NCBI GenBank assembly: GCA_000999315.1
Contig: LCFW01000004.1
Span: 5,540 to 69,539, forward strand
Reading direction: 5' to 3'
DNA: 64,000 bases
DNA from: Candidatus Peregrinibacteria bacterium GW2011_GWF2_43_17
GTDB lineage: Bacteria; Patescibacteriota; Gracilibacteria; UBA1369; UBA12470
In this document: one piece after another, positions 1,873-60,810 of the stretch
Position numbering within the stretch: the first letter of the stretch is position 1
Layout of the letters: each line of letters begins with the position of its first letter
The notes under the pieces: model-generated
What the model was told of the DNA's origin: nothing
Databases searched by the model: none
Seen by the model: the letters and a program-made list of their open reading frames with translations, nothing else
Position numbers and translations under genes: made by a program

Positions 1873-1900
1873 AAGCAAGATGAGGGTATTTTTATTTTTT
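1864..1900 (+). terminator. Intrinsic terminator inside the aroF 5' leader
   Basis: CCCTCAT (1864-1870), 9-nt loop, ATGAGGG (1880-1886), followed by TATTTTTATTTTTT. It lies 105 nt upstream of the aroF ATG. No plus-strand gene ends nearby. Confidence 0.65.
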
Positions 1901-2005
1901 AACCAAAAACAACCATGGAAACGATCGCGACGAAACTATTTGCACCTGTAGAATTCAAGAGGTATCTTTATCGACGCTAAAACACCACCATTAACCAATA
2001 AAAAT

Positions 2006-3034
2006 ATGATCATAGTAATGAAAAGTCATGCTCCAAAAGAGCATATCGAACACATCATAAGAGAACTCTCGGCACAAAAACTCAAACCCGTCCCTTTATA
2101 CGGCACTGAACGCACGGTAATCGCCGTAATCGGAGATGAACGCAATCTGGACATAAATCACCTTCGCGCACTTCCAAGCGTCAGCAACGTAATGCCCGTA
2201 CTCAAACCTTACAAACTTGCCGCACGCGAAACGAAACAAGAAGATACGATCATAGAAATCAAAGGGGTGAAAATCGGAGGAACAGAACTTTCAATCATGG
2301 CGGGACCATGCAGTGTCGAAAGCCAAGAGCAAATGAGCTTAACTGCACGAGCAGTCTCAAAATCAGGAGCAAAAATCTTAAGAGGTGGAGCTTTCAAACC
2401 AAGAACAACCCCATACTCCTTCCAAGGACACGAAGAAAAAGGCCTGAAAATGATCAGAAAAGCCGCCGATGAAAACAACATGCTTGTAATCACGGAAGTA
2501 ATGGACGCAAGCCAAATAGACGTCATTCTGAAATACGCCGACATCCTCCAAGTTGGAGCCAGAAATATGCAAAACTTCACACTTCTAAAAAAACTTGGGA
2601 AAATCAAGAAACCGGTCATGCTCAAACGCGGACTTTGTGCGACACTGAAAGAGTTCTTGCTCGCCGCCGAATACATCCTGGCAGGAGGAAATCAACAAGT
2701 CATCTTGTGCGAACGCGGCATTAGAACTTACGAAGATGATATGAGAAACACGCTTTCGATAGGCGCTGTCGCACGAATAAAAGAGTTAAGTCACCTGCCA
2801 CTTATAGTAGACCCAAGCCACGCAACGGGTATGGCAAGCCTTGTTTCACCGGTTGCCTTGGCCGCAGTAGCCGCGGGAGCCAACGGACTCATGATAGAAG
2901 TTCACCCAAATCCCACAACTGCACTAACCGACGGTGATCAATCCATCACACCGGAAGCATTCGAAAACATGATGGCAAAACTCAACCTCGTTGCGGTTGC
3001 GGTGGGGAAAGAACTTCCAAATAAAAAACTATGA
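2006..3034 (+). CDS. aroF: 3-deoxy-7-phosphoheptulonate (DAHP) synthase, type I-beta with N-terminal ferredoxin-like regulatory domain
   Basis: 342 aa. It shows a Thermotoga-type architecture: an N-terminal domain of about 70 aa followed by a KDO8PS-like barrel ([35 protein letters not shown]). Confidence 0.9.
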
Positions 3035-3969
3035 CCACCCACATCGAAAACCTGGCATCGACATTAAAAAAACTCCCCTACAACCGTTATTGCGTTATAA
3101 CCGATAAAAACGTCTATAAGCATTACGGCAAATTTTTGCACAAATTCGATCTAATTATCAAAGAACCCGGCGAGAAACTAAAAACACTCGCCAACATCGA
3201 AAAAACGGCAAAGAAACTCATAAAACTTGGACTGGATCGAGGAAGTTGCCTGATCGCAGTCGGAGGAGGAGTTATAGGGGATTTTACAGGGTTCCTCGCA
3301 TCAATTTACATGCGAGGAATTCCTTACATACAGGTTCCGACAACACTTCTCGCAATGGTAGACTCAAGCGTAGGCGGGAAAACGGGTGTGAATCTCTCAC
3401 TTGGTAAAAATCTGCTTGGGACATTTTATCAGCCCGTATTGACACTCTCATATCCCGAAACTTTGCAAACACTTTCGTTAAAAGAATTGAAAAATGGCAT
3501 AGCCGAGTCAATCAAGCACGCTTGCATCGGAGATAAATCGCTATTCGGATTTTTAGAAAAAAATCACGAAAAGATTCTGGCAAAAGATCCTGCGACACTG
3601 AACAAATTAATTACTCAATCTTCGGCTATCAAACTAAAAATAACGGGAAAAGACGAGCATGAAAAAGGCGTACGGATGTTTCTCAATTACGGTCATACTA
3701 TCGGACACGCAATAGAACAAGCTTCCAACTATGAATTAAGCCACGGAGAAGCGATTTCAATCGGAATACACCAGGTAAATTTATTCTCAAAATCACCGGA
3801 AACAAAACGCATTGAAAATCTCCTAAAGCTATACGATCTACCTACAAAAATCCCTTCCAATTTAAAGAAACAAGAAATCGCAAAAATCATAAAAACTGAC
3901 AAAAAAAAATTTAAAGGGAAATTAAGATTCGTAACAGTTCGAAAAATAGGATCAGCAACGATCATTTAA
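3031..3969 (+). CDS. aroB: 3-dehydroquinate synthase
   Basis: GGGVIGDFTGFLASIYMRGIPYIQVPTTLLAMVDSSVGGKTGVN and HGHTIGHAIE motifs. ATGA overlap with aroF. Confidence 0.9.
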   Translation: MTTHIENLASTLKKLPYNRYCVITDKNVYKHYGKFLHKFDLIIKEPGEKLKTLANIEKTAKKLIKLGLDRGSCLIAVGGGVIGDFTGFLASIYMRGIPYIQVPTTLLAMVDSSVGGKTGVNLSLGKNLLGTFYQPVLTLSYPETLQTLSLKELKNGIAESIKHACIGDKSLFGFLEKNHEKILAKDPATLNKLITQSSAIKLKITGKDEHEKGVRMFLNYGHTIGHAIEQASNYELSHGEAISIGIHQVNLFSKSPETKRIENLLKLYDLPTKIPSNLKKQEIAKIIKTDKKKFKGKLRFVTVRKIGSATII

Positions 3970-5140: not shown

Positions 5141-6300
5141 TTAAAAAGAACCTAACTCTACTCACTCTCATCCATAGCTTCCAAAGATTCGCAACAAACT
5201 CTTTGGGATTTTTCTGGGCCATATACTTCACGCAAATAGGATTAAGCGGGACGCAATCAGGGATACTATTTATGACACTCACTGTAACAGGAGTACTTAT
5301 AACACTTCCCGGAGGACTACTAAACGACAGAATTCCATCAAAAAGAATAATCCAGCTAGGCCTAATTTTAATGATCATCGAATTTCTCACATTAAGCCAA
5401 ACACAATATTTCCCATTCATCCTCGCAATGTTCTTCATAGGAGGCATCGGAACTAATCTGTACAACATTTCAATGGACAGTTTGTTTTACAAAACCTCGC
5501 AAGGAGAACCACCATCAAAAAGAATAAAAACATATGTCGGTTTTTATCTGCTGGGAGCAGGCATTGGAGTTTTATTCAGCGGTAATATCCTCGAATATAT
5601 AGATTTTCAAAAATATTTAATCGTAACGGCGGGACTGGTTTCGATATTACTCATATTATCCCTTTTATTGCCCAGCACGGAAACTTTCAAATTCGAAATC
5701 GAATCTTATAAAAAAGATATTAAAAAACCACACGTCTTACTTTTCATCGCAATAATATTTTCATTCGCGATACACATGGGATCAGAATTCACATCATATG
5801 GACCATTTCTGAAAGAGACTCTCGGCCTCACATTTTCACAGATGGGAGCATATATGGGAACCGCAATAATATGCATGTTCGCAACGGTAAGATTAACCAA
5901 CAGAGCACTTGAAAAAGGTACCGGCATAAAAACAATAATCACACTCGGATTACTCTGTTCCGGCATAGGCTACTTGATAATGCTTATACCAATAATCCCA
6001 ATCTCGCTTGTCGGCAGAATAATTCATGAAGGAGGCGATGCAATGATGTTTGTTTTCTTATACACGGGCGTTTTGGAATTTTTCAAAAAAGAACGTATCG
6101 GAGGCAATTCGGGTTTAATAACGTTAACACAAACTTCTGCTATCGCACTAAGTTCTTTGGTCTTCGGCCCGCTGGGCTCTTCCTTCGGGAACCAAATACC
6201 GATTATAATCGGAGCGATCACAACTTTGCTCGCAATCATTCTACTCAAAGAGTATGAGCACATCTCGGAAAAACATAGTAATAACGGGAATGCGCGGTAG
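5137..6300 (+). CDS. MFS transporter embedded in the aro operon
   Basis: About 12 predicted hydrophobic helices and an MFS loop motif, GGLLNDRIPSKR. ATGA overlap with aroA, and its 3' end overlaps aroK. Confidence 0.8.
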   Translation: MIKKNLTLLTLIHSFQRFATNSLGFFWAIYFTQIGLSGTQSGILFMTLTVTGVLITLPGGLLNDRIPSKRIIQLGLILMIIEFLTLSQTQYFPFILAMFFIGGIGTNLYNISMDSLFYKTSQGEPPSKRIKTYVGFYLLGAGIGVLFSGNILEYIDFQKYLIVTAGLVSILLILSLLLPSTETFKFEIESYKKDIKKPHVLLFIAIIFSFAIHMGSEFTSYGPFLKETLGLTFSQMGAYMGTAIICMFATVRLTNRALEKGTGIKTIITLGLLCSGIGYLIMLIPIIPISLVGRIIHEGGDAMMFVFLYTGVLEFFKKERIGGNSGLITLTQTSAIALSSLVFGPLGSSFGNQIPIIIGAITTLLAIILLKEYEHISEKHSNNGNAR

Positions 6301-6778
6301 CGGGAAAACAGCTATCGGCCAGATGATCGCCAAAAAATTAAGACGAGATTTCATCGATCTCGATGTTTACATAGAACGCACTGTAAATAAAAAAATAATT
6401 AAAATAGTCGAAGAAAAAGGATGGAATCACTTTCGCGAACTTGAAGAACAAGCTGTCGACAATTTATCTAAAACAAAAAACGCCGTAATCTCAACAGGAG
6501 GGGGAACTTTTATAAACCCGGCAAACGCAAAGAAACTCAAAAAAAACGGTCTCGTCTTATTGCTTACAGCCGACCTGAAAACACTGGAAAAAAGGATCAA
6601 TTTCAGCAGAAAACGCCCTCCTCTCACCAGCCAAAAATCGCTTAAAAAAGAGCTTGAACAAATCTGGAAAGAACGCAAGAAAACCTACCTGAAAAACGCC
6701 GACTTCGTCTATGACAACTCGAGCGACAAAGACCCGGAAGAAAAAGCTGAAGAAATCTTGGAAATGCTACCGGTCTAA
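6254..6778 (+). CDS. aroK: Shikimate kinase
   Basis: P-loop ITGMRGSGKTAIG, DLD and STGGG motifs. 174 aa. Confidence 0.85.
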   Translation: MSTSRKNIVITGMRGSGKTAIGQMIAKKLRRDFIDLDVYIERTVNKKIIKIVEEKGWNHFRELEEQAVDNLSKTKNAVISTGGGTFINPANAKKLKKNGLVLLLTADLKTLEKRINFSRKRPPLTSQKSLKKELEQIWKERKKTYLKNADFVYDNSSDKDPEEKAEEILEMLPV

Positions 6779-8040
6779 CCGTTAATCCGCAGAAGCCCCC
6801 CCTCGAGTCCTTTCTTCCCCAAAACAAAAACCCTATTCCCAACTCCCCCATGCACCTCTGTAAGAGGATTGCCTTTTATGTCTTTAAACTCTTTTACTTT
6901 AATTGAAACAACCGAATCGGGCAAAACAACCTCCAAAACTTCACCAGTCGAAACTCGATTTCTCACATCTACAAGATATTCACCTTTCGAAACCTCTTTC
7001 CCCACTATTCCAACAAACTTCGCTCCTCCTATCGGACTGCTTTTCTCATACCTCATGGAATTTTTACCCAAATCTCCAAATAAAAATCCGGGAGTATAAC
7101 CCCTGGAAGCGATTTTATAAGCTTCATCCATCAAAGACTCATCAAACGGTCGCCCGGCCTTCAAATCCTCAATCGCTTGCCTATAAATCTTACAAACACT
7201 CGCAACATAATAAACTGTCTTGCTTCTACCCTCTATTTTAAACGACGTTATCCCGGCATCCGCCATTTCTTTCAAATAAGGCAACATACAAAGATCTCGC
7301 GAATTCATAATATAAGTTCCATGTTCATCCTCGGAAATCGGCATATATTCACGTGGCCTCATCTCCTCCTCAAGAACAATTTTTTTATTCAGCAAATCGA
7401 CCTTTGGGCCATAAGAAGCCTCTTCAAGCAACTTATATTTAAATCTACAAGCTTGTACGCAAGCACCCTGATTCGAATCCCGAAAACTCATATAATTGCT
7501 AAGCAAACATCTACCGCTGTAAGCCACACAAATCGCCCCATGAACAAAATATTCAAGTTCAATATCTGGAACTTTTTTATGAATTTCTCTCACCTCTTCC
7601 AAATTTAACTCTCTGGATAAAATCACTCTTTTCACACCCTGATCTCGCCAAAACTGCACACTTCTATAATTCACATTATTAGCTTGCACCGACAGATGTA
7701 TTCTCGCCTTCGGCCAAACTTCTTTTATTATCGAAATCACGCCGGCATCCGCCGCAATCAGCGCATCAGGTTTCACCTCGTCTCTAAGCCATTTGATATG
7801 TTTTATAAAAGCCGGAATCTTGCTATTCCTAGGATAAATATTAACCGTCATGAAAAAAAATTTCTTCAGTTTTTTTGCCAAAGCACGACCGCGAACAACA
7901 CTCTCCGCATCAAATTCGGTAGTCTTTGATCTCAAAGAAAAAGCACTCATCCCGACATAACAAGCATCGGCACCATATCTATATGCATACTCAAGTTTCT
8001 GATAATCGCCCGCTGGAGCGACAAGTTCAAGATTTTTCAT
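6775..8040 (-). CDS. Peptidase U32 family protein
   Basis: N-terminal ELVAPAGD..YGADACYVG and a central E..VHGAICVAYSGRCLLS motif, both typical of the U32 (YegQ/RlhA/TrhP-like) family. Confidence 0.85.
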   Translation of the reverse strand: MKNLELVAPAGDYQKLEYAYRYGADACYVGMSAFSLRSKTTEFDAESVVRGRALAKKLKKFFFMTVNIYPRNSKIPAFIKHIKWLRDEVKPDALIAADAGVISIIKEVWPKARIHLSVQANNVNYRSVQFWRDQGVKRVILSRELNLEEVREIHKKVPDIELEYFVHGAICVAYSGRCLLSNYMSFRDSNQGACVQACRFKYKLLEEASYGPKVDLLNKKIVLEEEMRPREYMPISEDEHGTYIMNSRDLCMLPYLKEMADAGITSFKIEGRSKTVYYVASVCKIYRQAIEDLKAGRPFDESLMDEAYKIASRGYTPGFLFGDLGKNSMRYEKSSPIGGAKFVGIVGKEVSKGEYLVDVRNRVSTGEVLEVVLPDSVVSIKVKEFKDIKGNPLTEVHGGVGNRVFVLGKKGLEGGLLRING

Positions 8041-8453: not shown

Positions 8454-9672
8454 CGCGACCGATTCTCGAACCTCTACAATAAGCCGTCCCGCTAGGCGGG
8501 ACACCGCAATCGACTTTCTCGTCATCGGCTCGGGCGCCGCGGGCCTTAATTTCGCGCTATCCGCATCCAAATATGGCAAGGTTTTAGTGATAACCAAGAA
8601 GAAAATTTCCGATTCCGCAACAGAAAAAGCTCAAGGAGGAATTGCCGCAGTCCTAAATAAAAACGATTCGTTCACATCTCATATAAAAGACACACTCGTC
8701 GCAGGCCATTACAAGAACAAAAAATCGGCAGTCGAATATATTATAAAAAAAGGTCCGGCAGTCATCGCACACCTGAAAAAACTCGGAGTGAAATTCGACA
8801 AAGATTTACGCCGCGAAGGAGGACACTCTGCTCGCAGAATTTCTCACGTCGCCGACAACACGGGTAAAGCGATAGAAGACGCCCTCATCAAAGCTGTCAA
8901 AAAAAATCCGAACACCGAGATCCGCGAATACACGAAAGCCTTAAAAATAATCAAGAAAAACGGCTCGGCAATCGGCATAATCGCAAGCGATGAACAAAAA
9001 AATTGCACATACGAAATCCGAGCAAAAGCAATGATTCTCGCAACCGGCGGGATCGGTCAAAAATTCAAATCGACAACCAACCCGGAAATATCAACCGGCG
9101 ACGGCATCGACATGGCAAAAAAAATCGGCACACGCCTTGCCGACATGAATTACATCCAATTTCACCCAACAGTCTTAAACGCTCCGGGAACACCAAAATT
9201 CCTATTAACAGAAGCTCTTCGCGGAGAAGGCGCCAAAATCGTAAACGAAAAAAAAGAACGATTCATAAATGAACTTCTCCCTCGCGACACAATTTGCAAA
9301 GCAATGGAGAAACAGATAAAACAAGGTCATAAAATCTTCCTCGATTTCACGCACAAAAAAGCCTCTTACACCAAAAAAGCTTTTCCATACGTATATAAAA
9401 ATCTTAAAAAATACGACTTCGATCTGACAAAAGACCTTATCCCAATCGCACCAGCACAACACTATCTCTGCGGAGGAATCGCAGTTGACCTACAAGGCAG
9501 GACATCCATCCCGGGATTATATGCATACGGCGAAACAGCAAGGACCGGCCTTCATGGAGCAAACAGACTTGCATCAAATTCACTGTTAGAAGCAATTGCC
9601 ACAACTATGGAAACGCCAAACGGGATAGTCCGATATTTGTCTTCAAACCCTCTCGAATTTCGCACAAAATAA
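8419..9672 (+). CDS. nadB: L-aspartate oxidase-like flavoprotein, C-terminally short
   Basis: DFLVIGSGAAGL (FAD), AQGGIAAV, EGGHSARRI, TTNPEISTGDG, QFHPT, EALRGEGA and HGANRLASNSLLE motifs. The ORF stops about 25 aa after the last motif, so the usual C-terminal helical domain of about 90 aa is absent. Confidence 0.8.
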   Translation: MKSESSSRKVANATDSRTSTISRPARRDTAIDFLVIGSGAAGLNFALSASKYGKVLVITKKKISDSATEKAQGGIAAVLNKNDSFTSHIKDTLVAGHYKNKKSAVEYIIKKGPAVIAHLKKLGVKFDKDLRREGGHSARRISHVADNTGKAIEDALIKAVKKNPNTEIREYTKALKIIKKNGSAIGIIASDEQKNCTYEIRAKAMILATGGIGQKFKSTTNPEISTGDGIDMAKKIGTRLADMNYIQFHPTVLNAPGTPKFLLTEALRGEGAKIVNEKKERFINELLPRDTICKAMEKQIKQGHKIFLDFTHKKASYTKKAFPYVYKNLKKYDFDLTKDLIPIAPAQHYLCGGIAVDLQGRTSIPGLYAYGETARTGLHGANRLASNSLLEAIATTMETPNGIVRYLSSNPLEFRTK

Positions 9673-9676
9673 CATT

Positions 9677-10771
9677 TTACGCATCAGTCCCTCGTTTGTT
9701 CCCCACCATCCTCATCGCCTGATCCTCAATCGTCAATTTTTCAATCATATCCCCGATATTCCCATCCATAATCGAAGGAATATTGCTGAAATTCACATGG
9801 ATTCTGTGATCGGTAACCCTATCTTGAGGAAAATTATAAGTCCTGATTTTATCCGACCTGTCACCGGAACCGATTTGGCTTAGACGAGCCTCGCCAAGCT
9901 CTTTCTGACGTTTCTCTTGCTCTGCCGCATACAAACGCGACCTCAAAATGGACATCGCTTTAACCTTATTCTTAAGCTGAGATTTCTCATCCTGACATTG
10001 AACAACCAAACCGCTCGGCAAGTGAGTAATCCTAACAGCCGAATCGGTAGTATTGACACTTTGCCCTCCGCATCCACCGGATCTAAAAACATCAATTCTC
10101 AAATCCTGATCGCTTATCTTAATTTCAAGTTCTTCAACTTCAGGCAAAACAACAACAGAAGCGGTAGAGGTATGTATCCTGCCTTGAGCTTCTGTCGCAG
10201 GCACTCTTTGAACTCTGTGAACACCACTCTCATACTTCATCCGACCATAAGCTCCTTCTCCGTTAACCTTAAAAATAACTTCTTTAATACCATGATCGCT
10301 GTTACTCCTGCTCATCAACTCAACCTTAAACCTCTCTCTTTCAAGATACTTCATATACATCCTCATAAGCTCTTCGCCAAACATAGATGCCTCTTCCCCC
10401 CCCGTTCCGGCACGAATTTCAATAATACAATTCTTTTCATCGTTTGGATCTTTTGGTAAAAGTTCGACCTTTATTTGTTCTGAAAGTTTTTCGACCTGCT
10501 CTCTCGCACCCCCGAGCTCTTCTTTCGCCATCTCCCTCATCTCCTCATCATTTTCGGTCTCCAAAATACCCTCCGAACCGGCAATAATTTGGGACACCTT
10601 CTTAAACTCTTGAAAAAGAGCAACCACTTTCCCAAGTTCCTTATGCCTCCTGCCGGCACTGGCATATTCGCGAGAATTGGCAATCAACTTGGGATCACCA
10701 AGACCGGATTCGAGTTTCAGAAACTCGTCCTCGATTTCCTGCAACTTCTTTATGTGTAGTTCGTCAATCAT
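9677..10771 (-). CDS. prfA: Peptide chain release factor 1
   Basis: GGQ motif ([24 protein letters not shown]) and the RF1-type PAT tripeptide ([14 protein letters not shown]). Confidence 0.95.
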
Positions 10772-12247: not shown

Positions 12248-12420
12248 CTAAAGGAACCTCTGAAAAATGTGGTTCCGTTACGAAATTCTCATTCTTTCGA
12301 GCGAAAATAGCGAAAACCGACGAAGTCGTCCCGCTTAGCGGGACGTCGAGGAGGTCTGAGCTGTTTGCAGCCGAAAGATGGGAATTGCAGTAGGAAGTAT
12401 GTTTTTCAGAGGTTCCCTAA
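12248..12420 (+). repeat. Palindromic intergenic element, copy E1 (173 nt, MITE-like or structured RNA)
   Basis: 15-bp perfect terminal inverted repeat GGAACCTCTGAAAAA/TTTTTCAGAGGTTCC, with imperfect pairing continuing inward. The arms 12253-12305 and 12345-12416 are 53/53 and 72/72 identical to the reverse complement of 50527-50579 and 50297-50368. TA lies on both flanks. It sits 30 nt downstream of the gyrB stop. Confidence 0.8.
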
Positions 12421-49800: not shown

Positions 49801-50007
49801 TTGGCAAGATCTGTAAACACATCATTGGCAACTTTGATCACAATCGTTTCTCTCCTGATATTCGGCGCGGATTCGATATTCTACTTCGTACTCGCATTGA
49901 CGGTAGGCATAATATCGGGAACATACTCCTCGATCTTCATCGCCTCTCCATTGTTGGTATTGTGGAATAAATATAACGAGAACAAGAAACACAGCCACCT
50001 AAACTAA
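46846..50007 (+). CDS. secDF: SecD-SecF fusion protein with an inserted parvulin-type PPIase domain
   Basis: SecD N-terminus and P1 base (LGLDLQGGTQL, VELAGI, IFVGGEMISAPTV), six TM helices, then SecF (GMDFTGGTSMEIKF) with six more TM helices. Residues about 256-358 (nt 47611-47920) read as a PpiC/parvulin domain: ASHILI...EDFAELAKTYSED.GSGQNGGELGYFG.G.MV.AFEDAAF......SDIVETEFGYHIIKV. Confidence 0.9.
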   Translation: MKRYLSWQLATIVIMALVLGFISMPYSLQSKILPSESEFLKNTYINLGLDLQGGTQLDYKVDLRNVGDADKESIVEGVKEVISKRVNGLGVAEPTIYISQIADEYHIVVELAGIKDLEEAKSVVGKTIQLEFKEESTDTNLAEEQKTERYGYASAALEAVLGGQDIKVIGEEDQLAYPSIAVYSETELTPADELSETIKNAVSGLESGNIVQEVVEGEDGYTYTYGGDLIPLTGYFVIQVTDHQFVDETESNDKEVQASHILIGWDTSEVGSDRTKDEAYTLIAEILEKANNGEDFAELAKTYSEDLGSGQNGGELGYFGAGTMVQAFEDAAFAMATGGISDIVETEFGYHIIKVTDIKEASSEAITVEKYAFNQITYSTVADPWVTTELTGEHFVHADVQFDQNNTPYVSIEFDEEGGKLFEEITSRNVGGPLAIFVGGEMISAPTVNEAISGGKAQITGQFSVEEATNLARDLNTGAIPAPITLAGQYTIGASLGTEALHSSLIAGLIGLIALGLFMLLYYRLPGLMADIALCIYVILLVFAIKVALPLAVAILIAFGIFGAIVAILLKSNDPGWEKLITFVLACFILFFMSFVLSSQITLTLAGIAGVVLSIGMAVDANVLIFERIKEELKAEKPFALAIETGFQRAWDSIRDSNFSSLITCAILIYFGSSIIRGFAFNLALGILISMFTAITITRTFLRSAVGKKALESDFLFGINRKKKHVQLKIIKNSKFWLAASAVIGAISIIVIPLFGFNWGMDFTGGTSMEIKFSQEVTSEELTSAMTEIDTELDTETGTESVLVVDQEQSDEPVELGTPIIVKTNDGSYIIKIKHISEETHNYIISALENRFGELEEPKFTTIGPTIGETLKKKAIIAIFIALVMIVMYIGFAFRKVPRKVGAFRFGICAIIALVHDLLLVIGLFVVLGKFANVEIDALFITALLTILGFSVHDTIVVFDRIRENLRKGLYATFAETTDAALNQTLARSVNTSLATLITIVSLLIFGADSIFYFVLALTVGIISGTYSSIFIASPLLVLWNKYNENKKHSHLN

Positions 50008-50063
50008 CATTGAGTGACTCTGCAACGCTACGGAAAGCGAAGCTTTAGTGAATCAACACCAGG

Positions 50064-50132
50064 TTTTTTGTGTTGTCTCGAGCAACTCCACAGCGCTACC
50101 GTTCCATGCTCCAAGAGAGACAACACAAAAAA
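50064..50132. repeat. 16-bp perfect inverted repeat with 37-nt spacer, abutting the tRNA-Arg 3' end
   Basis: TTTTTTGTGTTGTCTC (50064-50079) pairs with GAGACAACACAAAAAA (50117-50132). Confidence 0.6.
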
Positions 50133-50134
50133 AC

Positions 50135-50211
50135 TGGTGCGCCCGGAGGGAATCGAACCCACAACCCCCGGTTCCGAAGACCGGTGCTCTATCCAATTGA
50201 GCTACGAGCGC
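50135..50211 (-). tRNA. tRNA-Arg (anticodon UCG), CCA encoded
   Basis: The reverse complement is GCGCTCG-TA-GCTC-AATTGGATA-GAGC-A-CCGGT-CTTCGGA-ACCGG-GGGTT-GTGGG-TTCGATT-CCCTC-CGGGCGC-A-CCA. It folds as a cloverleaf with one G-U in the acceptor stem and one T-T mismatch in the T stem. Confidence 0.88.
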
Positions 50212-50292
50212 AAACCGCTAACGTCGTAAATAGTACATAGGACACAGGAAATAGTCCAGACGCTCAAAAGACGCGGCTCTCCAATCCTTAAT

Positions 50293-50583
50293 CTAAGGAA
50301 CCTCTGAAAAACATACTTCCTACTGCAATTCCCATCTTTCGGCTGCAAACAGCTCAGACCTCCTCGACCAGGCTGTCCGACAATGAACTTTTTTAAGAAA
50401 ACGCATTGTTTTTAAATTTGCTTAATAATTCGCAATGCTTTTTGCTATCTGTTGCACAGAATAACATTTTACGCGTCAATCCTTCGCTTGTTTAGGACCG
50501 TCCTCCAATTTCATTGTCGGACGGTCTTCGCTCGAAAGAATGAGAATTTCGTAACGGAACCACATTTTTCAGAGGTTCCCTAG
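50293..50583 (-). repeat. Palindromic intergenic element, copy E2 (291 nt; inverted relative to E1, different and larger core)
   Basis: The arms 50297-50368 and 50527-50579 are 100% identical to the reverse complement of the E1 arms. The 158-nt core (50369-50526) is unrelated to the E1 core and is bounded by its own 13-bp inverted repeat, GTCCGACAATGAA (50375-50387) / TTCATTGTCGGAC (50510-50522). TA lies on both flanks. The right end supplies the last four codons and the stop of the 729-aa ORF. Confidence 0.8.
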
Positions 50584-52758
50584 CATTATCATTTCCCACA
50601 GCTCCATGCATATATCTCCCCTATCCCTTCCTTCATCCGGCATGAAATATCCACCTTCCTCCTCAACCAAGATCCCTAAATCAAAAGCCAACTTCACATA
50701 TCCGGCATACCAAGCCGTAGAATAAGTATCCTTATAAGGCATCCCGTCGGAAACATCTTCATCTTCCGACACTTCATAGCCGTAAGCATTCAAAAGCATC
50801 TTCACCGCCTCAACCTTATTTACAGTGTCTTCGGGATGAAAATAACCGTCCGAATACCCGGAAACCCATCCTTCCTCTTTGGCGTAACAAACATATTTCG
50901 CATACCAATCATCATCGACATCCGGGAAACAATCTTTGTATTCATCGGGATCGGAAGTAAGCCCCAACCCTTCGACCAATATCTTAAGAAGTTCCGCCCT
51001 GTTCACAGTATTATTCGGGTAAAAATTCCCATCATCGTAACCATCTATAACTCCCATCTCCCACAAACCCATAACCGCATCATAAGCATCATTCGTAGAC
51101 TCCAAATCACCAAAAACAAACTCCTCCGTATAACCGGCGATCTCCGACGATGAAATCAAAAGCTCGTCATCCTCGGAGTAAGCCTCGATTGTAAAATAAT
51201 AAATCGTATCTGGAGCAAGTTCGCTTATTGTAGACATCACCGTCCAAGCATTTTCCACATATTCCGATCCGATATACTCACCCGAAACATCGCCGAAATA
51301 CAAAATATAATGATCTATATCCAGTTGAGAAAGCCTGTTCCATTCCAAAGTAATGGATCCGTCATCATAAGACAAAACTTCCAAAATCAATTCATCAACT
51401 TCTCTAACCTCATCTCCGGTACCCACATCTTCCCCTTCTTTATCCGTATCGCCGGTATCTATCTCGGCACCCGAATCCGCTAACGACACCTCTTCGCTTT
51501 CATCAAAATCTCCGAACTCGGCGGAATAATAATAAGCATACCCTGTATCAAAAGTCAGAACCCCGCTCCCCATTTCCGTCGTAACGGGAGAAACAATCAC
51601 GTACACAATATCAAAATCTGAGGCATCCTCAAAAACAAACTCGGAATACGTCGCATTAACATCCGACGTTTCCTCTTCAACTTTTGTCAGATAAAAATTT
51701 CCAGAAGAGTCCGCAGGAACGAAAGTGACAAGCGTTTCAACAAAATCATTTTTCGTAATGGTAAACTTAAGATCGTCCTCGGTCACGGAAGAGGTGTCAA
51801 AACCTATGTAATTCGATCCATACAACGCCGGGAAAGCTTGCGGATGAGGCATTTTATTTTCGACAGGATAAGAACTCCACAATCGTATTAAACTGACATC
51901 GGGATAATTTTCACCTTCCTGATAAGTTTCATCATGAGCCAAATTCCAAATCGTAAATTCCCTGTAAACTTCGGGCAACTCATCCCCAAGAATTTCAACT
52001 ATCTCCGAAACGGAATTGTAAACCGTTAAAACCCCTTTGGCTCCGACATCTTCACTCTCAAAATAAGTCTCCCAAATATCCACCAAAACCTCGTCATCTT
52101 CATAATATTCCGTCAAAAATATCGGCCATATTCCGAGCGCATATTCGAACAAAGTCCCATTAGGAGCAATTCCGGCAAAAATCGAATAATCGGGATAAGC
52201 AAAATAATCCTGTAAATAAGTTAAAATAATATCAGCCTCATCATACACATACTCTTCCGCCCAAACCGCAGTAGCTTCCGCGAAATTCAAACTCTGATAA
52301 GTCTCCAGAAAATAAGGGTCGTAAGAAAACTGTATACAATGCATAAATTCATGAGCGATAGTCGATTTCATCAAGTCGGAAGTCAACCAAACATCCACAG
52401 CTATATAAGAAGTCAAATCTGGCAAAGACCAAGTAGTCCCTATAGATCCTTCATACAAATACTCATATTCATCATCAAAAATAATCGGGATATACCCGCT
52501 TTCTATCGGAGGATCGAATCCCAAATCATCAATTTCCCTATCCCAACTTTCTTCGGCATAAACACCGACATCTTCAACCGTATCCGGTATTCCATCCGAA
52601 TCGGAATCGACCTGAACTTGAACTATTTTGTCGTACTCTATTTGAAAATGTTCGGTATAAAACGCGTACTCTTTAAACTCACCGGTTTCGGCAAAAGCAA
52701 CCGCGGGAAGAAAGAATAATGCCAATCCGATAAATAGGAGAATCGCTTTTGTTTTCAT
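50569..52758 (-). CDS. Secreted putative zinc metallopeptidase with FN3-like domain and three C-terminal SLH-like repeats
   Basis: Signal peptide; HExxH (TIAHEFMHCIQF); an FN3-like segment (LEWNRL..YYFTIEAY); C-terminal repeats of SLH character (FGDL...YDAVMGLWEMGVIDGY, FPDVDDDWYAKYVCYAKEEGWVSGY, YKDT..AWYAGYVKLAFDLGI). Confidence 0.7.
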   Translation of the reverse strand: MKTKAILLFIGLALFFLPAVAFAETGEFKEYAFYTEHFQIEYDKIVQVQVDSDSDGIPDTVEDVGVYAEESWDREIDDLGFDPPIESGYIPIIFDDEYEYLYEGSIGTTWSLPDLTSYIAVDVWLTSDLMKSTIAHEFMHCIQFSYDPYFLETYQSLNFAEATAVWAEEYVYDEADIILTYLQDYFAYPDYSIFAGIAPNGTLFEYALGIWPIFLTEYYEDDEVLVDIWETYFESEDVGAKGVLTVYNSVSEIVEILGDELPEVYREFTIWNLAHDETYQEGENYPDVSLIRLWSSYPVENKMPHPQAFPALYGSNYIGFDTSSVTEDDLKFTITKNDFVETLVTFVPADSSGNFYLTKVEEETSDVNATYSEFVFEDASDFDIVYVIVSPVTTEMGSGVLTFDTGYAYYYSAEFGDFDESEEVSLADSGAEIDTGDTDKEGEDVGTGDEVREVDELILEVLSYDDGSITLEWNRLSQLDIDHYILYFGDVSGEYIGSEYVENAWTVMSTISELAPDTIYYFTIEAYSEDDELLISSSEIAGYTEEFVFGDLESTNDAYDAVMGLWEMGVIDGYDDGNFYPNNTVNRAELLKILVEGLGLTSDPDEYKDCFPDVDDDWYAKYVCYAKEEGWVSGYSDGYFHPEDTVNKVEAVKMLLNAYGYEVSEDEDVSDGMPYKDTYSTAWYAGYVKLAFDLGILVEEEGGYFMPDEGRDRGDICMELWEMIMLGNL

Positions 52759-60640: not shown

Positions 60641-60810
60641 TAAAAGACGTCTGCAAAAGTACAATTTTAATACGAAATATGCAATCTTTGAGCGAAAATA
60701 ATGAAGCGCGACGAAAACGTATCAGGGAAAGATACGATGAGAAGCGATGAATTATTTGTAGCCAAAGAGTGCATATTGCAGTAAAAAAGGTACTTTTGCA
60801 GACGTCTTAG
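60641..60810 (+). repeat. Palindromic intergenic element, copy E3 (170 nt; diverged homologue of E1/E2)
   Basis: 19-bp perfect terminal inverted repeat AAGACGTCTGCAAAAGTAC (60644-60662) / GTACTTTTGCAGACGTCTT (60790-60808). It shares internal blocks with E1 (TACGAAAT, CTTT(C)GAGCGAAAATA, CGACGAA, TTTG(C/T)AGCC(G)AAAGA, ATTGCAGTA) in the same order and spacing. The rpoD stop codon lies in its right end. Confidence 0.7.

Follow-up and report, generated by a model that had tools for sequence, protein, structure and literature searches.

Several classes of small mobile or repeated sequences in bacteria are built around palindromes. The palindrome-associated elements derived from IS200/IS605 move as single strands by a “peel and paste” reaction, need the Y1 transposase TnpA, and insert 3' of a fixed tetranucleotide. 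Elements nested within one another are familiar among MITEs, and nested MITEs are known from plants. In bacteria, the MITEs include Correia/NEMIS, ERIC, RUP, Nezha and Chunjie, and both the nesting of such elements and their supply of stop codons to neighbouring genes are well documented (PMC3184786). REPs, in turn, are known targets of insertion sequences, among them IS1397 and ISKpn1 of the IS3 family and IS621, ISPpu9 and ISPa11 of the IS110 family (Tobes and Pareja 2006, PMC1525189). REPINs, finally, are long hairpins moved by RAYT (Y1 HUH) transposases (Bertels and Rainey 2011, PMC3116915; Nunvar 2010, PMC2817692).

The locus described here lies in the genome of a groundwater Peregrinibacteria, a CPR bacterium, assembled as 1.2 Mb in 16 contigs (C1 and so on) with a completeness score of 100%. 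The window is the whole stretch of 64,000 nt that was analysed, C4:5540-69539, and positions given without a contig name refer to it. At 50293-50583 the window contains a repeat, E2, which probably combines two palindromic repeats, both non-coding and unrelated to each other, an element of one family (B) having been substituted for the 17-nt hairpin at the tip of the other (A). The nested structure is ordinary; what is unusual is the exact substitution of one hairpin by another. To our knowledge, the textbook mechanisms do not account for a precise hairpin substitution without target duplication in a genome that lacks RAYT, IS110 and IS3 transposases. At least three interacting palindromic repeat families (A, B and D) are present in this 1.2-Mb CPR genome, together with a REP-like 17-mer. 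The groundwater project PRJNA268031 has yielded other assemblies of this DNA, and three from the same population (L032, L033 and L036: an ENA scaffold, a megahit contig and the NCBI MAG GCA_003484725.1) were compared with the window. On their contigs the SecDF and protease proteins and E2 are those of the window, apart from 24 nt at one E2 junction that are considered below.

E2 belongs to family A, a hairpin MITE of this genome, through full-length homology of both its arms to E1 (12249-12420, plus strand), an intact copy of the family. BLAST and alignment match the first arm (50293-50368, including a flanking CTAA) to E1 97-171 reversed, E2 2-76 being 98.7% identical over 75 nt, and the second arm (50528-50583, including a flanking CTAG) to E1 5-57 reversed, E2 235-287 being 100% identical over 53 nt. 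An earlier note on this DNA had described E2 as sharing two arms with E1 in inverted orientation, and both points hold. Four occurrences of the arm motif GGAACCTCTGAAAAA are seen in the window, where 0.38 would be expected. With regard to a putative 4-nt target duplication, the flanks of E2, CTAA and CTAG, agree at three of four positions, while those of E1 are best read as TAA and TAA, a 4-nt CTAA leaving an extra A on the left. No polymorphism in E1 was found across five assemblies.

Folded as DNA, E1 gives z = -9.15, and the tip of its fold is a 17-nt hairpin at 12328-12344. A third copy in the window, E3 (60641-60810, plus strand), is diverged and carries a different tip hairpin, GTATC-AGGGAAA-GATAC. 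Family A is found without B in E1 and in the copies on C3, C1 and C10, and of the roughly seven family-A copies of the genome E2 is the only one that contains it. The family-A tip is thus found in three states, GTATC-N7-GATAC (E3 and the C3 copy), GTCCCGCTTAGCGGGAC (E1, C1 and C10) and B (E2), and the term “variable apical domain”, used in the earlier note, is apt as a description. E2 itself folds better than its shuffles on both strands, with z = -7.0 for the plus and z = -9.2 for the minus strand. From the inverted position of E2, likewise at a gene's 3' end, it had been argued that hairpin shape rather than a specific strand is what matters. This argument is not sustained: it rests on two or three copies, and opposite orientations are expected of any element that inserts either way round, so that they are no evidence of function.

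In E2 of the window, E1 positions 58-96 (39 nt, including GTCCCGCTTAGCGGGAC at 12328-12344) are missing, as had been noticed before. The core found in their place measures 159 nt (50369-50527) and not the 158 nt first given, and the replacement did not take the form of one swap of 39 nt; it resolves into the substitution of 17 nt by 160 nt and a secondary deletion of 24 nt. The evidence comes from the long allele of the three sister assemblies, which has 24 extra nucleotides at the right B/A junction (...GTCGGACGGTCTG|GACTTCGTCGGTCTTCGCTATTTTCGCTCG...) and reads ...CCTCCTCGAC|B...GGTCTG|GACTTCGTCGG... in all three. At the left junction, CCTCCTCGAC is followed directly by B, base for base the same in all three assemblies as in the window. 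To the right, the complete B of the long allele is followed directly by the family-A sequence that comes after the hairpin in E1 and in the C3, C1 and C10 copies. Since B is complete and family-A sequence resumes directly on both of its sides, the segment that it has replaced is the 17-nt hairpin GTCCCGCTAAGCGGGAC, neither more nor less; in the E1 fold this hairpin is the very tip of family A. There is no target duplication at B in E2.

The deletion that distinguishes the window lies between 50527 and 50528, where the final G of B and 23 nt of family A (GACTTCGTCGGTCTTCGCTATTT) are missing. Short direct repeats, GGTCT...GGTCT and TCGCT...TCGCT, border the lost segment, which fits slippage. The 24-nt difference reflects either a genuine polymorphism due to slippage or a choice made by the assembler, and the right junction of E2 is accordingly to be read with the caution that 24 nt differ between assemblies.

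The core belongs to a repeat family of its own, non-coding and palindromic, here named family B. Its copy in E2, with all features on the plus strand, is 159 nt long and lacks the last G, whereas it is complete at 160 nt in the three sister assemblies. The terminal inverted repeats are CAGGCTGTCCGACAATGAA on the left (50369-50387) and TTCATTGTCGGACGGTCT(G) on the right (50509-50527); of 14 other copies, 13 have the terminal G, which therefore belongs to B. The 13-bp inverted repeat reported earlier (50375-50387 and 50510-50522) was confirmed and, if two mismatches are allowed, can be lengthened to 19 nt, of which 17 pair. The second stem, GACCGTCC/GGACGGTC, is likewise found, at 50496-50503 and 50519-50526, and forms a right sub-terminal hairpin, GACCGTCC-N15-GGACGGTC (50496-50526). 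Alignment places an inner hairpin, GCATTG...CAATGC, at 50403-50438, with an A-run on one side and a T-run on the other, and an apical mini-hairpin, TCTGT-TGC-ACAGA (50448-50460), lies within an 18-nt block, GCTATCTGTTGCACAGAA, that is also kept in the homologue from a related genus. Folded alone, B forms a 19-bp terminal stem and this small apical hairpin. The longest ATG-initiated peptide that could be read by eye from the sequence has about 12 amino acids.

A BLAST search of the genome with the core returned 13 near-full copies on ten contigs, two further copies cut by contig ends, and several fragments, a total of about 15 copies plus mini-derivatives. All begin with (C)CAGGCTGTCCGACAATGAA and finish with TTCATTGTCGGACGGTCTG, while their flanks are unrelated; with constant ends at more than ten unrelated loci, the description of E2 as an element within an element is confirmed. 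The copies have a median identity of 97.5% over shared columns and range from 129 to 160 nt in length. In eight other copies the loop of the inner hairpin GCATTG...CAATGC has suffered graded deletions of differing extents, and two other internal deletions also distinguish copies of B. A 35-nt derivative that consists of the right sub-terminal hairpin only, mini-B, occurs at five other loci, at one of which a further small hairpin is nested in its loop. At 9662-9713 the window also contains a 52-nt fragment, 81% identical to inner B, that overlaps the 3' end of the minus-strand ORF 9677-10771. Two contigs break inside copies of B, at C1:127401-127500 (the end of C1) and at C13:1-105 (the start of C13), and the interior of the C13 copy is inverted with respect to its CAGGCTG end. 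The fragmentation of this MAG is due in part to B.

Family B has a narrow range. The 18-mer GCTATCTGTTGCACAGAA occurs 15 times in this genome and twice in G007, a genome of one related genus, and not once in the 199 other genomes of the order that were scanned. A conserved 19-mer of B had no match in the viral contigs scanned, and a 15-mer, TTCATTGTCGGACGG, sought in the genome contigs of other organisms, gave chance single matches in unrelated phyla. G007 holds one homologue of B, 72% identical overall and with compensated changes in its ends, and one fragment; the 18-nt block is kept across the two genera despite this overall divergence. An empty-site comparison of the G007 homologue with its congener G005 was uninformative, the spacer being rearranged.

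By crude ORF calls, all copies of B are intergenic. Of 17 B ends, nine are no more than 30 nt from the stop codon of a gene, compared with 15% of intergenic positions (binomial P about 3e-4), and nine of 11 of these, with E2 among them, share one orientation relative to the upstream gene. At unique loci the self-complementarity of the flanks of B did not exceed that of random sites (mean -9.1 vs -8.3 kcal/mol, P = 0.24). Searches for a regulatory or RNA signal in E2 gave little: the best sub-threshold Rfam match had E = 1.2, a promoter scan of 50000-50700 found one promoter-like site, as many as shuffles would give, and no intrinsic terminator (GC-rich stem, loop of 3-8 nt and T-run) was found in the same interval. 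Short-loop variants of B elsewhere, with GCATTG-TTCG-CAATGC followed by TTTTT, look closer to an intrinsic terminator.

The substitution seen in E2 recurs in a third repeat, family D, which is about 290 nt long, has inverted ends of about 33 nt (TAGGGCCTGTGCACACTATTGGTT) and contains two internal short hairpins. Copies of D lie at C2:205836-206131, C5:8120-8396, C6:7765-8052, C3:~7817-8025 and C2:361584-361999. D and family A share a central motif, CGACGAAGT...hairpin...GAGGAGG, and the left junction of D is common to a 245-bp family (C3:70689, C4:89322, C2:334532). Analysis of the flanks of B showed that it is found in D at two different places. At the first, the intact sequence CTGGAAA|GCCCCGCTAAGCGGGGC|GAGGAGGAG is replaced by CTGGAAA|B|GAGGAGGAG in C5:38146-38285, with GAGGAGG in the right flank, and three further copies share this left junction with B. 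At the second, CACTC|GCGTACCAACGGGTACGC|AGCGCTCC is replaced by CACTC|B|AGCGCTCC in C2:361658-361797, with AGCGC in the right flank. In both swaps a hairpin with a 7-bp stem and a loop of 3-4 nt was removed from base to base, and no duplication is present. The 15 copies that share the left junction of the first site are found in different states, seven with GTATTA(C), four with the GC hairpin and four with B; the B cases may descend from a single event, which would leave three independent events in total. At all three B sites whose prior state can be read, that state was a short hairpin with a 7-bp stem, replaced exactly. Coincidence cannot reasonably explain three such events, both boundaries being exact in this genome for two of them and in the sister assemblies for the third.

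The hairpin displaced in E2 is itself repetitive. The 17-mer (G)YCCCGC-NNN-GCGGGR(C), with the core CCCGC-NNN-GCGGG, occurs in 30 copies in the genome against 0.35 in shuffles, and often tips longer, locus-specific stems, as in GGCCGGTA[17-mer]TACCGGC; a solitary example in the window is GTCCCGCTAGGCGGGAC at 8486-8502 on the plus strand. Another mini-hairpin family, CCTGTC-GGNA-GACAGG and variants, is represented at C2:~180680-180744 and C2:~361870-361890, one such copy lying in the loop of a mini-B and one being inserted in a copy of D. Hairpin-in-hairpin nesting is recurrent in this genome. Two simple derivations of these repeats from one another were considered and rejected. The 17-mer is not a collapsed B, as the stems differ (GTCCCGC vs GTCCGAC) and the outer 6 nt of B are absent from it; nor was B copied into family A from a B-bearing D through the shared CGACGAAGT and GAGGAGG, as the junctions of E2 keep family A's own bases up to the hairpin.

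E2 lies between two genes, and its effect on them appears slight. The protease-like gene with SLH domains (50569-52758, minus strand, 729 aa) has its last five codons, including the stop, within the family-A terminus: the ORF ends ...EMIM-L-G-N-L-TGA, with the final 15 nt (50569-50583) inside E2. The earlier statement that the right terminus of E2 supplies LGNL and the TGA is literally correct, but what the element contributes is G-N-L and the TGA only, and these come from the family-A terminus and not from B. When the flanks are joined with a single flanking CTAR, the reconstructed empty site reads ...ICMELWEMIMLD*, with the end ...EMIMLD*, and the old TAA is still present just beyond E2. On this reconstruction, the insertion changed D* to GNL*, a net gain of two amino acids. 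The SLH repeats (Pfam) lie upstream of this C-terminal tail, which is not conserved. Eight orthologues were compared, seven at family level (52-61% identical where the whole protein aligns) and a metagenome relative (L021, Ga0172371_10059111) that is 86% identical; their tails run for 5-9 aa after a conserved ELW and are unrelated (GILSQ, ELLGVLDLR, ELINSL, ELISGW and others). In this comparison of C-termini, which had been proposed earlier, the ending LGNL occurs in none of the eight, and the closest relative, L021, has no element at this locus. L021 has instead, at 1875-3112, a stretch of about 1.1 kb with a small hydrophobic ORF between the protease gene and tRNA-Arg; the local gene order thus differs, and no repeat is found there. 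The suggestion that the element had truncated or extended the gene is not borne out, as D was exchanged for GNL in an unconserved tail and the gene is neither truncated nor meaningfully extended. Downstream of E2 the next gene is tRNA-Arg(TCG) (50135-50211, minus strand), the only Rfam match at gathering score. The consequences for the protease and for the tRNA are probably nil, and B at most adds another stem-loop after the protease gene.

What enzyme, if any, might have moved B was approached through the gene content of the genome. Six-frame HMM searches detected no Y1/RAYT gene (Y1_Tnp, PF01797) at E <= 0.01, under conditions in which control genomes matched, and no IS110, IS630, TnpB or rve genes; a cognate transposase for B was not found in this genome. 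The sole recognisable insertion sequence, at C14:~5524-6808 (L026 996-2280), encodes a DDE_Tnp_1 transposase of 391 aa, flanked by 19-nt inverted repeats, CTAAAAAGGCACGAATTTT, that are unrelated to the ends of A, B and D. The genome also encodes four tyrosine recombinases (C6:28361-28882, C6:34176-34691, C6:80004-80540 and C8:33740-34219), two of them 6 kb apart, and one large serine recombinase (C4:346-783).

We propose the following order of events. Family A would have inserted first, at a CTAR site, converting the protein end from ...IMLD* to ...IMLGNL*; B would have arrived afterwards, and the 24 nt may then have been lost by slippage between the direct repeats GGTCT and TCGCT. The short GC hairpins displaced by B would be REP-like repeats of the same general kind, and B would be moved in trans by a structure-specific enzyme that recognises the base of extruded hairpins and cuts there. 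In its behaviour B would then stand closer to REPINs or single-strand hairpin cassettes than to DDE elements that cut and paste. A filled/empty pair for B in otherwise identical DNA was obtained at no unique locus, and insertion of B is therefore deduced from paralogous repeat copies only. A broader version of this proposal, which we advance tentatively and hold to be rather doubtful, is that B, and perhaps the 17-mer and the other mini-hairpins, are hairpin cassettes, for which an undescribed reaction excises a short extruded palindrome at its base and puts another in its place, without target duplication; every transposase family known for activity on REPs or hairpins is lacking in the genome.

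Set beside the described systems, B resembles MITEs, REP-targeting insertion sequences and REPINs, yet fails one defining feature of each. Like REPINs, it consists of two inverted ends that fold into one long hairpin; the 17-mer is, like REPs, an abundant short GC-rich extragenic palindrome, with its 30 copies; and an intergenic location near gene ends, the lack of target duplication and an orientation bias are shared as well. Unlike in REPIN systems, the genome has no Y1/RAYT gene, the ends of B, GTCCGACAATGAA, are not a doublet of the 17-mer, GTCCCGCTWAGCGGGAC, and copy numbers are in the tens and not in the hundreds. We know of no REPIN described to exchange one hairpin exactly for another. 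The insertion sequences that target REPs share with B the choice of short extragenic palindromes, a “safe” site behind genes, all three readable B sites having had 7-bp stems. However, they carry genes and split the palindrome, which they leave in place, whereas B has no gene and the palindrome is removed whole; B also has no transposase of its own, and neither an IS3 nor an IS110 transposase is found in this genome.

The likeness to MITEs is that B is small (129-160 nt), non-coding, bounded by terminal inverted repeats and dispersed; MITEs may also fuse with ORF ends and provide a stop codon there, and may lie one inside another. Classical MITEs, by contrast, create a target duplication and have a parent insertion sequence with the same ends. 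At 13 copies of B no target duplication is visible, and at three sites a hairpin was deleted; no parent was found in this genome, in which the only insertion sequence is of the DDE_Tnp_1 type, and the motif is absent from the 199 genomes of the order and from the viral contigs. Ordinary MITE nesting, moreover, deletes no precise piece of the host element, whereas B does. With elements derived from IS200/IS605, B has in common hairpin ends and the absence of target duplication, and its orientation bias is compatible with a single-strand mechanism. It differs from them in its long terminal inverted repeats, where theirs are sub-terminal hairpins, and in its diverse left flanks, and the genome encodes neither Y1 nor TnpB.

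Exact hairpin replacement might also be reached without any enzyme dedicated to it, if replication stalled at the base of a hairpin and switched by copy choice to another hairpin as template and back, or if a hairpin that host nucleases had cleaved were repaired from an ectopic copy. This explanation would account for the lack of a cognate transposase in the genome, for the absence of target duplication with swap boundaries that lie exactly at hairpin bases, for the numerous deletions of the slippage type in hairpin loops and at direct repeats, and for the nesting of several kinds of hairpin in one another. Yet the same two ends of B are found at more than 13 unrelated loci, where ragged ends would be expected; template switching needs microhomology, of which none is visible at the three resolvable junctions; and the orientation bias relative to the upstream gene, nine of 11, is not predicted by it. 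We regard it as the main rival, though an unlikely one. Far less probable is that the core is not foreign at all and represents an alternative functional apical domain, such as an RNA domain, of one modular family for which the A arms are the scaffold. The three states of the family-A tip, the preservation of GCTATCTGTTGCACAGAA across two genera at 72% overall identity and the good fold of E2 as a whole would suit such a domain. It is hard to reconcile with the occurrence of B at more than ten loci without A arms and inside a different repeat family, D, with its presence in one of about seven family-A copies, with the lack of an Rfam match (best E = 1.2) or of promoter and terminator signals above chance, and with the decay of B copies by deletions.

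That the nested structure is an artefact of assembly, in which repeats were wrongly joined, had been recognised in the earlier note as a danger to its description, and it is a fair concern in view of the multiple copies of B, the breaks of C1 and C13 inside it and the 24 nt by which the window allele departs from other assemblies. We can nevertheless dismiss it with near certainty, as three independent assemblies place B at the same position inside E2 with an identical left junction and a right junction that has 24 extra nt, and as unique genes flank both sides. The reading that we prefer for E2 remains that of a composite in which B probably took the place of the family-A tip hairpin.

For the two adjoining genes the finding has little import: the domains of the protease are intact, and its tail, which is not conserved, is longer by two residues. 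The value of the finding lies in repeat biology. Family B and the substitution of one hairpin by another are new here, and they provide a testable handle on the spread of REP-like sequences. If the hairpin-cassette proposal is true, it would bring to light, in a CPR bacterium, a new way of moving DNA or a structure-specific recombinase that is itself new.
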